The position numbers were made by a program. Of a DNA stretch of 64,000 nt, positions 15,001 to 18,000 are shown piece after piece; position 1 is the stretch's first letter; each line of letters starts with the position of its first letter. The stretch spans positions 32,001 through 96,000 of the forward strand of contig CALSNU010000005.1 in assembly GCA_943787795.1 (NCBI GenBank). Direction: 5' to 3'. This DNA comes from an uncultured bacterium. GTDB lineage: Bacteria; Planctomycetota; UBA1135; GCA-002686595.

Positions 15001-18000
15001 CGGAGGCTTCGTGCACTGCTCCGGGCAGGTGGCCTTCATCCCCGAGACCATGGAGATCGTCGAGGGCGGCGTCGCCGAGCAGACCGAGCAGGTCATGGCC
15101 AACCTGGGCGCCGTCCTGGAGGCCGCCGGCTCCAGCTTCGCCCAGGCGGTCAAGTGCACCATCTACCTCAAGGACATGGGCGACTTCGCCACGGTCAATG
15201 AGATCTACGGGCGGGCCTTCGACTGCGCCGAGCCGCCCGCGCGGGTCACCATCGAGGCGGCGCGCCTCCCCAAGGACGTCCTGGTGGAGATCGACTGCCT
15301 CGCCCTCGCCGGGCCGGGCAGTTGAGCTGACCCCGGAGGGCGCCGGGACGCTATTCTCTCCGCCCTCATGAGCGTCTCCTGTGGAATCGTAGGCTTGCCC
15401 AATGTCGGCAAGAGCACCCTGTTCAATGCCCTGACGGCGGCCGGCGCGCAGGAGGGGAACTTCCCCTTCTGCACCATCGACCCCAACGTCGCGGTGGCGG
15501 CCGTCCCCGACGCGAGCCTGGAGACCATCCATCGGTTCATCCAGACCGACAAGGTCATCCCCGCGTCGGTGAAGATCGTCGACATCGCGGGCCTGATCGC
15601 CGGCGCGTCGAAGGGGGAGGGGCTCGGGAACAAGTTCCTTTCGAACATCCGCGAGACCGACGCGATCATGCACGTGGTGCGCTGCTTCGGCGGCTCGAAG
15701 GTCGTGCGCGAGGAGCCGGTCGACCCCCTCAAGGACATCGAGGTGATCGAGCTCGAGCTGGCGCTCGCCGACCTCGACACCGTGGACCGCGCCATCGAGC
15801 GCGTCTCCAAGAAGGCGCGCTCGGGGGACAAGGACTCGCTGGAGCAGAAGGAGCTCTTCGAGCGGGCCAAGGCCATGCTCGAGAACGGCGACCTGCTGCG
15901 CGCCCACGACTGGACCGACCGCGAGCGCCTGCTGCTCAAGCCCATGTGCCTCATGTCCACCAAGCGCATGCTCTACGTGGCGAACGTGACCGACGAGGAC
16001 CTGGACGGCTCGTCGGAGTACGCGCAGGCGGTGGCGGCCCGCGCGGCGGCCACCGGCTCCGAGTGGATCCCCATCTGCGGCGACATCGAGTCGGAGCTGC
16101 GGAACATGGAGGACGAGGAGCGGGACCTGTTCATGGCCGACCTTGGCATCGAGGCCCTCGGCCTCGATCGGCTGATCCAGGCGACCTACAAGCTGCTCGG
16201 CCTGCAGACCTACTACACCGCCGGCGAGAAGGAGATCCGCGCCTGGACCACCGCCACCGGCTCGAAGGCGCCCCAGGCCGCCGGGGTCATCCACACGGAC
16301 TTCGAGAAGGCCTTCATCCGGGCCGAGGTCTACGCGGTGGAGGACCTCGTCGAGCACGAATCAGAGACGGCCATCCGCGCCGCGGGCAAGCTCCGCACGG
16401 AAGGCCGCGACTACGTCATGCGGGAAGGGGACGTGTGCCACTTCCTGATCGGGAAGTGAACCAAGGCGGGGGGCCGTGGCAGGAAACCCGCGCCGGGACC
16501 GTTCGAGGGCCTAGTGAGCGAGGGCCTAGCGGGCCTTCGGCCCGGGCGATCGACCTCGATCGCCGTCACCGAGCGCCGCTCGCGGGCAGGTGACCTTCGC
16601 TGGGCGGAAGCTCCTCCTTGGGACCCCAAGGGCCCGGTCAGCGATCCTGTGGCCCGGTCAGGGAATCAACGGCGGACCACCTCGAACGGGGGCTTGGGGT
16701 AGACGGGTTCGAGCGTGCTGTTCTTCGTGGGGGACTCCAACGGAGTCGAGGCGCCGCCGCCTCAGCCGTACTCCATGGAGCCCGTCTCAAGGACGGTCTT
16801 GTCCCCACCGAGGAGCCGGTACTCCATGGGAATACGAGCGCCGGAGCGATAGATCGTCAGGCCCGCGCCGCTCGCGCCGCCGGCGCCCGTGATCTTGATC
16901 GCACCTCGCTTCCCCGTGACCTGCGAGGCGAGGTGGATGCGCGGATCGACGTCGAGCCGCGTGACCTTTCCCTCCACGATCTCGATCTTCTGGAGGGTCG
17001 CAGCCGTCGCCGAGATGTGCCAGTGGACACGCTTCTCGACCCGTTCGATCCGGTACGTCCGCAGCCGATAGGTGCCGGCGGGGAGGACACGGGGGTCCCT
17101 CCTCGCGCGGCCCTTGCCGCTCCAGGAGAGACGGTAGCTCTTGCCCTCCGCGTCGGTGAGGAAGAGGTCGCCGATGGGGATGTTGGCGGTCAGCGTGCCC
17201 TCACCCTTCCGCCGGCGCCTCTTGCTCGACAGCACCTCTGGCAGCTCAAGCGGGCGCGCGCTCAGGAACTCGATCAGGGCCGCACGGACCCGTTCGGGGG
17301 CGCCGCTTCAGGCGGTGTCCTTGACCTGATTCAGCCACGCGCGATCCCGCGGAAGCTCCGGGTCCGGCGGCAGGTGGCAGGCCATGCAGGAGCGCTGGAA
17401 GAGCTCCCCTGCCTGGGCGATCTCGGCGGCCTTGGGGCCGTCATCCTGCCTGACCGGCGAAGGCGCGAGTCGGGCGGCGGTGAGCGGGGCCGTCAGGGCC
17501 ATCAGGGCCGTCAAGGCGAGGAGGTTGAGGTGTTGCATGGCAGCATGATTGGGCCTTTGGAGGCAGCGGGGTCCTTGGCCTGTCGCGCACGGGGGCCTCT
17601 GCCCGGCGCAGCGAGGCCTTGCCCCAGGATTTTGCCTGCGGGCGGCTCGCCGCGGTTCTCAGCCCTGCGAATGGCGTCAATCATCGTCGCTTACCGATGG
17701 TCTTGAAGTGACTTTGGGGCCGCGCTGGTCATCGCTCGTGCGCCTCCTCAGCGCCGCGCTTGAGCCTCTTCACCAAGGATGGAGCGGAGGAGCACTCGAT
17801 CCATGGGGTCGCGGTGGGGCGAAGGGCTGCGAGAGTCGAGCATGAGGCACCTATCGAGCGCGAGGCGCTGCCTTGGGCAATCGCGCAAACCCCGACCTCG
17901 TCATGATAAGCCCCAAACATACCTCTTGGAGAGCGACGGCGAGCCGGCATCTGTTCATGGACGCCGGGAGCCAGAGCGAGGAGAGTCGTTGGGGCTGGTG

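Follow-up and report, generated by a model that had tools for sequence, protein, structure and literature searches.

What does a haem c attachment motif do in the same secreted polypeptide as selenocysteine, and where does this polypeptide end? The question is raised by a locus on the minus strand of the window, a 64,000-nucleotide stretch of DNA from an uncultured member of the Planctomycetota. An earlier note read the locus as a mono-haem cytochrome c acting as an electron-transfer selenoprotein. The secreted selenoprotein and the placement of a CxxCH motif within a cytochrome c-like domain were retained in the present analysis; a second selenocysteine (Sec259), a 31-residue C-terminal extension and two beta-sandwich domains had been missed. 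The reading favored here, to which sequence comparison and structural models lend about an even chance, is a haem c with His and Sec as its ligands, coupled to a further redox site that is specific for Sec.

One secreted protein read through two in-frame TGA codons

The whole gene occupies 16666..17538 (-) and contains 290 codons followed by a TGA stop, with both Sec77 and Sec259 encoded by TGA. This extent was determined by translation and by the retention of the frame and of both TGAs in relatives. The apparent separate gene fragments are, from the comparison of sequences, one secreted 290-aa protein with a cytochrome c-like domain and two selenocysteines. The single open frame described earlier over 17538..16762 (-), in which codon 77 (17310..17308) is a TGA, was confirmed, and so was CMACH at residues 51-55 (17388..17374) followed by ..KDTA-U-SGAPERVRAAL... 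The earlier length of 258 aa with a stop at codon 259 was wrong: the TGA at 16764..16762 is the second Sec codon, and the real length is 290 aa. A signal peptide (MQHLNLLALTALMALTAPLTAAR..) is predicted by eye at about residues 1-23 (17470..17538 (-)) with an approximate cleavage site, and hydrophobic N-termini are also found in the relatives.

The first in-frame TGA (Sec77, site 1; 17308..17310 (-)) lies in the loop joining helix 2 and helix 3, and the second (Sec259, site 2) lies at 16762..16764 (-). Among 57 translated related loci, site 1 is U in 41 and Cys in 16, and site 2 is TGA in 56; the combinations are Sec/Sec (41), Cys/Sec (15) and Cys/Arg (1). The frame, the TGA position and the downstream peptide are kept across the 57 loci, with identity down to about 30-35%. 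Past site 2, the frame stays open for 30-41 conserved codons (YG-U-GGGG..LELVY.KPPF..) in 23/23 Sec-form relatives, which then terminate with TAA, TAG or TGA, and similarity is gone beyond that point. The TGA at 16666..16668 (-) is thus the true stop codon.

RNA-library contigs and gene neighborhood were also compared. Metatranscriptome contigs from run X17 cover 16428-16750 and 16805-17210, and those from run X18 of the same study cover 16583-16760 and 16887-17164. As the intergenic DNA at 17552-17900 is also covered in X17, these contigs do not demonstrate expression of the gene. The missing contig cover over 17211-17551 is uninformative. In the 21 loci compared, every neighbor is common to at most 3 loci, and no conserved neighboring gene indicating a pathway was found. 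One neighborhood cluster shared by 8 loci is an antisense ORF of the selenoprotein gene itself.

Conservation of the two selenocysteine sites

The family search covered 151 genomes and returned 26 matches, 24 of them nearly full-length. Within these 24 loci the site 1 column holds TGA in 23 and Cys in 1, far beyond chance conservation. In the phylum search, site 1 is TGA in 20/35 loci and Cys in the remainder, and none of the 65 tree-set sequences has a residue other than U or C at position 77.

The replacement patterns of the two sites differ. Cys was found at site 1 in 8/8 TGA-free database homologues. At site 2, these eight homologues and the Cys/Arg locus (L034) carry residues without redox chemistry (R twice, S twice, G twice, and N, E and P once each), with Cys in none. 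In the tree, TGA-free forms emerge at least three times inside the Sec/Sec clade, each time with Cys at site 1 and with R, S, N, E or G at site 2. Loss of the Sec machinery was rejected as the explanation of the Cys/Arg form, since selA is still present in that genome (G119). Cys-for-Sec homologues, a criterion applied to selenoproteins, therefore exist for site 1 and not for site 2. This contrast is unusually clean: sulfur suffices at site 1 and apparently not at site 2. The persistence of Cys at site 1 in 8/8 homologues lacking site 2 indicates that the role of site 1 is independent of site 2. Given its replacement by unrelated residues, site 2 may instead be dispensable, and not Sec-specific.

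SECIS hairpins and selenocysteine machinery

Both UGAs are recoded, as judged from their conservation among relatives; each has its own SECIS hairpin just 3' of it, and the Sec machinery is present in the genome. Hairpin 1 (GGGUC-CGUGC-GGCCC) lies at 17277..17291 (-), with its loop beginning 21 nt past the TGA of Sec77; a hairpin with a CGUG loop had been reported here before. Hairpin 2 (GACUC-CGUUG-GAGUC) lies at 16733..16747 (-), with its loop beginning 19 nt past the TGA of Sec259. The apical loop consensus is CGKGN for hairpin 1 and NGKUN for hairpin 2.

For hairpin 1, 92.8% of cells are paired versus 86.6% in shuffles, and none of 500 shuffles is as high. Two pairs are changed on both sides, and pair 21-33 (GC18/AU4/UA1) is never broken. 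The hairpin was found in 39/41 Sec forms versus 0/14 Cys forms, which ties it to the TGA. For hairpin 2, 95.7% of cells are paired, again with 0/500 shuffles as high; compensatory changes occur in 4/6 pairs, as in pair 22-28 (CG12/UA9/UG2), and a stem of at least 5 bp is found in 50/56 parsed rows. Both hairpins outscore all slid controls. The single-sequence folding energy of hairpin 1 was no better than that of shuffled sequences (z +0.8, +0.9, -0.8), so the support for this hairpin rests on comparison, not on energy. A search of Rfam at E <= 10 returned no SECIS family, with chance miRNA and sRNA rows only. In the same genome selB (328 bits), tRNA-Sec (69 bits), selA (457 bits) and selD (327 bits) were identified, all above curated cut-offs.

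Distribution of the family

The family was found in 60/401 sampled genomes of the phylum, and a database search over 1.84 billion representatives gave 656 clusters at E <= 1e-3. The related loci found with a 7-row alignment are from Planctomycetota MAGs, one of them labelled Fimbriimonadaceae. This family occurs widely among Planctomycetota of marine and groundwater origin and is unannotated. It is stored in databases mostly as nameless fragments, and a word-based protein search returned only four of these, 168-170 aa long. Annotation overlooks the family because the gene is broken into three parts by its two UGAs. It is not in Pfam or NCBIfam, nor in the selenoprotein inventories examined. 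No description of it was found in the literature searched, including the available text of PMC9312934, PMC13188914, PMC11703216, PMC4807772, PMC13326102 and PMC12013277, and an entry in a supplementary table is possible.

A minimal cytochrome c-like domain

Residues 31-100 (17239..17448 (-)) are modelled by AF2 as three helices (pLDDT 88), and the model, VIA, hhalign and PDB profiles suggest that this region, in which CxxCH is invariant, adopts a minimal fold of the class I cytochrome c type. The predicted haem c attachment motif, CMACH (C51/C54/H55; 17374..17388 (-)), is invariant in 24/24 family members, in 35 further loci and in 8/8 TGA-free homologues, and the His of CxxCH is invariant in all 65 tree-set sequences.

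In the VIA search with the AF2 model of the N-domain, c-type cytochromes account for 44 of the best 50 rows, with Z at most 4.9. The comparison by hhalign with 11 PF13442 domains of the same genome gave a local probability of 85.9% and E 5.2e-6 over 68 columns. In the PDB profile search the best 60 matches are all cytochromes c, the lowest E being 7.5e-4; other proteins are missing from these 60 because the helix ahead of CxxCH matches the cytochrome c consensus. Foldseek placed cytochrome c6 and a cd1 c-domain at the top of its matches for the N-domain (TMq 0.55-0.62 but E > 0.6), with nothing at E <= 0.001.

At the level of family models the matches are weak. Among the 24 members, PF13442 was matched in 20/24, PF14495 in 16/24 and PF00034 in 12/24. 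On the domain in the window, PF13442 scores 14.8 bits, below its cut-off of 27, and the class I threshold is not reached. The sub-threshold Pfam and NCBIfam cytochrome matches mainly span the N-terminal helix and CxxCH. The earlier finding of no Pfam family and only the NCBIfam model QcrC (E 0.019, residues 14-55) was reproduced, and the whole protein is without a Pfam match at E <= 10. The genome holds 26 PF13442-like matches and a CcsA-type maturation gene. From the sequence and the model, C51 and C54 probably carry a haem c in the periplasm, and H55 would be its proximal ligand.

Sec77 as candidate sixth ligand of the haem

Across 24 aligned domains, the columns C, C, H, P, W, Q, T, U/C, R, A and P are invariant. 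Neither a Met nor another His is conserved among these 24 domains, and U/C77 is the sole conserved ligand candidate. U/C77 lies in the loop preceding the last helix. In the hhalign alignment, Sec77 falls near the template's M-P ligand motif, a few columns away and not exactly on the Met column, and nine template columns including M-P are gapped right after it. The pLDDT is lowest near Sec77, at 66 for model residues 41-50. On the alignment and the model, Sec/Cys77 is in the loop from which the distal ligand usually comes.

The selenolate of Sec77 may thus be the distal sixth ligand, a step for which the chances appear evenly balanced, and a low-potential His/Sec haem would result. By analogy, such a haem would correspond, with selenium in place of sulfur, to the His/Cys haems of SoxA, TsdA or PsbV2. 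Should Sec77 prove to be the ligand, the protein would be the first natural example of a c-type haem with a selenolate ligand, and the family would offer a natural system for the effects of selenium on haem potential and reactivity. No description of selenocysteine at the place of the haem sixth ligand in c-type cytochromes was found in the available text of the literature searched.

Beta-sandwich domains and the second selenocysteine

The cytochrome c-like domain is followed by two beta-sandwich domains in the AF2 model. D1, about residues 110-198 (16945..17211 (-)), matches CnaB, transthyretin-like and other beta-sandwiches by VIA, with Z up to 7.4. D2, about residues 199-290 (16669..16944 (-)), holds the Y-G-U-G-G-G loop followed by three strands (model residues 232-236, 245-249 and 257-259; pLDDT 87-93). 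Without the tail past site 2, D2 loses these three confidently modelled strands. In VIA, Ig- and MG-like domains align over model residues 166-260 (D2). Foldseek with the whole model returned generic two-domain Ig-like matches only (TM < 0.22), and Pfam returned nothing meaningful for the C-terminal part or for the proteins without the cytochrome domain.

Those relatives without a cytochrome domain share D2 alone and carry YG-U-GG-x-C, and the cytochrome-bearing forms lack that Cys. The D2-only proteins suggest that site 2 is a center of its own, on sequence grounds. A joint proposal, which we offer tentatively and rate somewhat below an even chance in all its parts, is that Sec259 on a flexible loop would be a second, Sec-specific reactive center; that it would trade electrons, or bound sulfur, selenium or oxygen species, with the haem-Sec77 center; and that the cytochrome domain would take over the role of the neighboring Cys (U-G-G-x-C) of the cytochrome-free relatives. 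The favored substrate would be a periplasmic oxidant (peroxide) or a sulfur or selenium compound.

Alternative readings

A diselenide may be formed in place of a His/Sec haem. The haem c would then be an ordinary electron entry, five-coordinate or with a non-conserved sixth ligand, and would reduce an interdomain Sec77-Sec259 Se-Se pair, or an Se-S pair in the Cys77 forms. The protein has two Sec and no conserved Cys besides CxxCH, the cytochrome-free relatives pair site 2 with a local Cys that is missing from the cytochrome-bearing forms, and a pTM of 0.85 suggests that the domains are fixed relative to one another. However, the Cys of site 1 persists in 8/8 homologues that carry R, S, N, E, P or G at site 2, and in L034, which argues against a mere resolving partner, as such a partner is expected to decay after the loss of site 2. 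Moreover, no other conserved residue of the domain is able to ligate haem. We know of no close precedent for the reduction of a diselenide by a one-electron haem. The diselenide is considered unlikely, though it deserves serious consideration. Among the readings, it is the nearest to the "electron-transfer selenoprotein" proposed earlier.

The domain may also bind no haem. Its scaffold would then derive from cytochrome c, and CxxC-H and Sec77 would form a site for a metal (such as Cu, Hg or Zn) or a chalcogen, or else a redox site of the thiol/selenol kind. Every cytochrome family match is sub-threshold, the domain is unusually short with only 22 residues from His55 to Sec77, and the genome has selenoproteins with CxxU or UxxC metal-binding motifs, such as the HMA protein with GMT-U-GAGC. 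This reading is made quite improbable by the His after CxxC, which is invariant in 65/65 tree-set sequences, by the helix before the motif, which fits the cytochrome c consensus and brings up only cytochromes c among the best 60 PDB matches, and by the export of the protein in a genome with numerous c-type cytochromes and a gene for their maturation.

The Sec loop and helix were earlier taken to be of the same type as those of the tandem HMA-like di-selenoprotein. If they were the same evolutionary module, the present protein would inform on the function of that module. The local text is alike, U-S-x-x-x-x-(V/A)-R-x-(A/T)-L, and the hairpin loop CGUGN is identical in both; the CGUG loop reported at both Sec sites of the HMA-like protein was indeed found (CGUGC/CGUGA, G000 C4). 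Nevertheless, the kinship did not hold. Pairwise BLASTP gave E 0.16 with 10/38 identities, limited to 38 residues and beginning exactly at Sec, and there was no PF00403 match. The folds differ, with three helices here (AF2) versus beta-alpha-beta-beta-alpha-beta for the HMA-like repeats (read by eye only). The common (V/A)-R-x-A/T-L arises because the SECIS hairpin GNC CGU GNG GNC, lying in phase, encodes these residues, so that R-x-A-L is its in-frame reading. The CGUGN loop is also found 3' of the Sec codon in an unrelated thioredoxin-like protein and in three large FG-GAP-like proteins. A common module is therefore very improbable. Without kinship, the present protein says nothing on the HMA-like module as a redox center, and the earlier argument to that effect is not supported. 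The SECIS hairpin can force similar peptides on unrelated selenoproteins, which is a trap for motif-based inference.

Finally, one or both TGAs might be true stops, so that the locus would be a pseudogene or three small separate genes, or would be read through at a low level with no selenocysteine inserted; the locus is split by gene callers, the majority of the 150 database matches listed end just before site 2, and the single-sequence hairpin energies are unremarkable, but this is hardly credible against a frame, TGA position and downstream peptide conserved over 57 loci, hairpins that covary and track the presence of TGA, Cys substituting for Sec at site 1, and pieces that are incomplete domains.

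Comparison with known systems

The His/Sec-ligated cytochrome with a second Sec site, the preferred reading, was compared with the closest known systems. Like PF13442 (Cytochrome_CBB3) and PF00034, the domain has an N-terminal helix, CxxCH and a predicted three-helix core; unlike them, it has shortened loops and lacks the M-P ligand motif, in whose region T-A-U/C is found.

The earlier statement that a haem-c/Sec pairing is absent from selenoprotein inventories was too broad. In a 2026 review, a table catalogues ExtKL (NF040886), the GSU2204 CXXCH porin family (NF041027) and an octahaem tetrathionate-reductase-type cytochrome family (TIGR04315) as selenoproteins (PMC13188914). As in the present family, a haem c attachment motif and Sec occur in one secreted polypeptide. 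As catalogued there, those proteins are multihaem or form an outer-membrane barrel and have one Sec, whereas a mono-haem class I-like domain, beta-sandwiches and two Sec are found here. None of the three models was matched at E <= 10 with the 259-codon reading, nor at E <= 1 with the full protein and five family relatives.

The sole natural precedent for a Sec-ligated haem found in the available text of the literature is a P450, ncCYP subfamily M, in a 2024 bioRxiv preprint (PMC11703216). The haem is of the b type, the Sec is proximal, and the protein is not secreted. Both proteins have a UGA-encoded Sec, which in the P450 is at the usual thiolate-ligand place as described there, and both were hidden as truncated ORFs (PMC11703216). 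In the present protein, unlike in the P450 as the preprint presents it, the haem would be a covalent haem c and the Sec would be distal, opposite His, with ligation deduced from sequence.

SoxAX, TsdA and PsbV2 chains are among the VIA matches (Z 3.8-4.4), no better than ordinary His/Met cytochromes. SoxA(X), TsdA and PsbV2 have His/Cys-ligated c-type haems, with sulfur redox chemistry at the haem ligand. The present protein shares with them a predicted class I-type fold, CxxCH and a conserved chalcogen residue in place of Met in the distal loop, this residue being Cys in 16/57 loci and in 8/8 TGA-free homologues. It differs in having Sec in most members, a far smaller domain (about 65 residues), two fused beta-sandwich domains with a second Sec, and no significant sequence match.

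SoxY, the partner of SoxAX, is an Ig-like carrier with Cys on a C-terminal glycine-rich "swinging arm". By analogy, the present protein would have a chalcogen residue among glycines (Y-G-U-G-G-G-G) on a beta-sandwich, together with a thiolate/selenolate-type cytochrome c. Unlike in SoxY/SoxAX, both parts are in one chain, and the Sec loop is internal, being followed by three strands. The fold of D2 is that of a generic Ig/MG-like sandwich, and SoxY lies outside the best 50 VIA rows. SoxY, TsdA and SoxAX do not stand out among the VIA matches. The full picture drawn from sequence and models, which we hold to be a real possibility that falls a little short of even, would be a natural His/selenolate c-type cytochrome in one secreted chain with a second Sec on a glycine-rich loop that is never replaced by Cys, in effect a selenium SoxAX-plus-SoxY or peroxidase-like machine.

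Two in-frame TGA codons in one gene

A single open frame runs along window 17538..16762 on the minus strand and is interrupted by a TGA at codon 77 (17310..17308; site 1). The N-terminus of the product is hydrophobic and signal-like, CMACH lies at residues 51-55, and the TGA is flanked by ..RDRAWLNQVKDTA-U-SGAPERVRAALIEFL.., where U is selenocysteine. A Pfam scan gave no match at E <= 10, and QcrC was the sole NCBIfam match (E 0.019, residues 14-55). These points agree with the earlier note, which was incomplete: its stop at codon 259 (site 2) is a second selenocysteine codon. 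The gene ends at 16668..16666 and encodes 290 residues, among them Sec77 and Sec259.

The neighbouring genes in the window are ychF (convergent) and a methyltransferase-like gene (divergent), and no neighbouring gene is common to the 21 loci compared. Near-identical DNA is present in marine metagenomes of 9 studies. Metatranscriptome contigs from two libraries of one study match the gene in places, with 99-100% identity; the upstream intergenic DNA is matched as well, so that transcription of the gene is not established by them.

Conservation of site 1 and site 2

Matches were found in 26 of 151 genomes of the same family, 24 of them near full length. Exactly one TGA was present inside the 258-codon query in 23 of these 24, and translation of the loci placed it in the same column in all 23; the 24th locus (L034) has Cys there. 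Past ..YG-TGA, the frame continues for 30-41 codons in all 23 Sec-form family relatives. The peptide kept after site 2 is U-GGGG-(W/S)-A-(S/P)-(L/V)-(E/K)-(P/S) ... LELVY-x-KPPF-x-V. Third positions vary in the glycine codons after the TGA, so that selection on these glycines acts on the protein. The AF2 model builds three strands of the last domain, all placed with confidence, from the residues that follow site 2, so a product that stops at codon 258 would have an incomplete domain.

Of 401 genomes sampled from the phylum, 60 matched. By our count, 46 rows cover almost all of the profile; 31 of them have two TGAs and 15 have one. Twenty of the two-TGA loci and all 15 one-TGA places were translated; U stands at both sites in 20/20 of the former, and Cys at site 1 with U at site 2 in 15/15 of the latter. 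After two duplicates were dropped, the 57 loci comprised 41 Sec/Sec, 15 Cys/Sec and 1 Cys/Arg forms (site 1/site 2).

Recoding hairpins and selenocysteine machinery

Hairpin 1 has the loop CGKGN, and this loop starts 21 nt after the site-1 TGA. In 23 sequences, 92.8% of its cells pair, compared with 86.6 +/- 1.1% in shuffles, of which none in 500 reached the observed value; sliding the partner gives no more than 63%. Its pair 21-33 occurs as GC (18), AU (4) and UA (1) and is never broken. Hairpin 2 has the loop NGKUN, which starts 19 nt after the site-2 TGA. Here 95.7% of cells pair (slid versions, at most 58.7%), and changes on both sides are seen in four of six pairs; pair 22-28 is CG in 12, UA in 9 and UG in 2. 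Some of these compensatory changes replace two amino acids together (P..E vs S..K), which shows that the RNA is under selection.

The Cys forms served as a control for hairpin 1. Of the 41 Sec forms of site 1, 39 have a hairpin with 4 bp or more and an NGKNN loop at +21, vs 0 of 14 Cys forms, two further Cys forms being unparsed. At site 2, the stem reaches 5 bp or more in 50 of 56 parsed rows; the six misses are three mis-parsed places and, by eye, three distant members with 4-nt loops. Single-sequence folding of the window's hairpin alone was thermodynamically unremarkable, and no Rfam family matches the hairpins. The SECIS hairpins (window 17291..17277 and 16747..16733; alignments A1 and A3) also determine some of the protein's residues: read in frame, the stems give A-R-x-A-L downstream of site 1 and A-(P/S)-(L/V)-(E/K)-P downstream of site 2.

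The genome that contains the window (G000; 4.7 Mb in 8 contigs, 85% complete) encodes selB (328 bits, cut-off 242), tRNA-Sec (69 bits, cut-off 47), selA (457 bits) and selD (327 bits), the last with an in-frame TGA of its own. The organism is equipped to make selenoproteins. The selA and selD genes are adjacent at C5:184589-187201, on the same contig as the window and outside it. Recoding of the TGAs in this gene is very probable.

The N-terminal domain and Sec77

A profile of 24 N-terminal domains was compared with PDB sequences. The best 60 matches were all cytochromes c (best E 7.5e-4), the match being confined to the helix and CxxCH. When members were scanned singly, PF13442 was touched by 20/24, PF14495 by 16/24 and PF00034 by 12/24; the window's protein stayed below threshold in such scans. 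The genome has 26 PF13442-like places, 11 over the cut-off. Alignment by hhalign with 11 PF13442 domains of this genome covered 68 columns with a local probability of 85.9% (E 5.2e-6) and a probability of 53% in global mode. One of the 26 places lies in the window at 52844..53110 (+), a PF13442 domain of 46.7 bits inside a 462-codon frame.

The AF2 model of the whole mature protein reached pLDDT 88.3 and pTM 0.85; the N-terminal domain alone, with three helices, likewise reached pLDDT 88.3. In VIA-align against 48,161 chains, c-type cytochromes took 44 of the top 50 rows, with Z at most 4.9. The best Foldseek rows were cytochrome c6 and the c-domain of cd1 nitrite reductase, at TMq 0.55-0.62 and E above 0.6. 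A CcsA-type maturation gene is also present in the genome. Haem is probably attached to the N-terminal domain.

Invariant positions in the domain hold C, C, H, P, W, Q, T, U/C, R, A and P; neither a Met nor a second His is conserved in the alignment. The AF2 model places Sec/Cys77 in the loop that joins helices 2 and 3, from which the distal Met of class I cytochromes c comes. The ligand in the PF13442 templates of the same genome is a conserved M-P, and hhalign puts U77 a few columns before it, beside a nine-column gap. The position of U77 is right, but residue for residue the match is inexact. Sec77, or Cys in relatives, may ligate the haem iron, a proposal for which we see the chances as even.

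Unequal evolution of the two sites

In a full HMM search of 1.84 billion representatives, 656 clusters reached E <= 1e-3, 306 reached <= 1e-10 and 91 reached <= 1e-30. Among the 150 matches listed, most stop at profile position 227, immediately before site 2, and many start just after site 1; such entries are gene pieces truncated at the TGAs. Eight listed proteins that span the site-2 region without a TGA were compared. All eight have CxxCH and Cys at site 1; their site-2 residues are R, S, S, N, E, P, G and G.

The Cys/Sec and Sec/Sec clades are separated in a 65-sequence tree by a branch with 97% SH-aLRT; this tree comes from a quick search, has several long branches, and keeps the columns of both sites, read as Cys. 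The TGA-free forms have at least three origins inside the Sec/Sec clade, and in each origin site 1 became Cys and site 2 a non-chalcogen residue. The locus of the Cys/Arg form belongs to a genome that retains selA. Site 1 requires sulfur or selenium whatever occupies site 2, the behaviour that a haem ligand should show. At site 2, Sec is either kept or given up. One database protein (P0047, 642 aa) is a Cys/Sec-type relative fused behind an N-terminal region of ~400 residues that resembles, by eye, a BNR/sialidase-type propeller; its entry stops at the second TGA.

The sandwich domains and relatives without the cytochrome domain

Residues ~110-198 and 199-290 were modelled by AF2 as two generic beta-sandwiches, with CnaB, transthyretin, MG and Ig-like domains as the best structural matches (Z up to 7.4). 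The weaker matches of the phylum search proved to be secreted proteins, about 250-480 residues long, that have no cytochrome domain; some are arranged in tandem. They lie at L080:662-2014 (+), L081:751-2085 (-), L082:2-1432, 1436-2818 and 3625-4854 (+), L083:3304-4695 and 979-1737 (-), and L084:742-1992 (+), and they contain DxDxDG-type repeats. Pfam and NCBIfam scans of them gave no match. These proteins form a second selenoprotein family of Planctomycetota, one that is apparently unannotated.

Only the last sandwich is common to these proteins and the gene's product (..F-E-Y-G-U-G-G-x-C-x-Y-S-W-R-V-P..). They have a Cys four residues after the Sec, whereas the cytochrome-bearing forms do not; the U-G-G-x-C spacing is as in a selenenylsulfide motif. 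Since the local Cys occurs only in the cytochrome-less proteins, we propose that the haem-Sec77 centre would take over the partner role for Sec259 and so replace the neighbouring Cys. Functional coupling of the two sites is a tentative suggestion, somewhat less likely than haem ligation by Sec77.

Other candidate selenoproteins and the HMA-like protein

The genome was scanned for a TGA followed by a hairpin with a CG(U/G)GN loop. Nearly all of the 128 matches were noise; nine lie, by reading, in coding-looking frames: the gene itself, two sites of the tandem HMA-like di-selenoprotein, a thioredoxin-like protein, three large paralogues, one more candidate and one out-of-frame duplicate. Several unlike proteins thus share the CGUGN loop, which is a trait of SECIS elements in this lineage rather than of a single protein module.

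The earlier note had linked the gene to the HMA-like protein (L139:290-937, minus strand, contig C4; 216 aa), which has a signal peptide and two repeats. Its Sec sites read ..HASGKG-U-SAGKKARAAFL.. and ..TPGLT-U-SDTAGRVRETL... BLASTP of the gene product against it gave E 0.16 over only 38 residues, beginning at the Sec. Read in phase, the hairpin GNC-CGU-GNG-GNC codes (A/V)-R-(A/V/E/G)-(A/T), and this is the "helix" that had been found alike. The proposed kinship is not upheld by this pairwise comparison, the likeness being the in-frame reading of a lineage-wide hairpin; the selenoprotein and cytochrome parts of that interpretation stand. Each repeat of the HMA-like protein has G-x-U-S and a SECIS hairpin, and its only Pfam match was DUF4875 (E 0.086), with none to HMA. 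A true HMA-domain protein (PF00403, 33.7 bits) is encoded at C2:109226-109387 (-; L140), and in its metal-binding motif GMT-U-GAGC the Sec replaces the first Cys.

The three large paralogues are candidate selenoproteins with an in-frame TGA, on C1 near 1,248,719 (+), C3 near 277,088 (+) and C8 (-). They have 593-795 codons before the TGA and 359-637 after it, read ..DL-U-SS(F/Y)WR(R/H)V.., and carry hairpins of the type GCGGCG-CGUGG-CGCCGC, with FG-GAP/VCBS-like text upstream. The thioredoxin-like candidate (C7 near 99,960, +) reads ..FGREL-U-SQC.. with the hairpin AGCCU-CGUGG-AGGCU, and the further candidate (C6 near 581,711, +) reads ..SGYI-U-ICMNHQGHG...

Comparison with known systems

The best-supported reading is a secreted two-Sec protein with a His/Sec haem c (His/Cys in relatives) and a second, Sec-specific centre. 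No NCBIfam model matches the family, and the literature searched, supplementary tables apart, has no mention of it in the passages covered. Review tables, among them that of PMC13188914, contain the cytochrome-type selenoproteins PF13435/ExtKL, the GSU2204 CXXCH family and an octahaem tetrathionate-reductase family. The first native Sec-ligated P450 is reported in a 2024 preprint (PMC11703216). None of them is the family to which the gene's product belongs.
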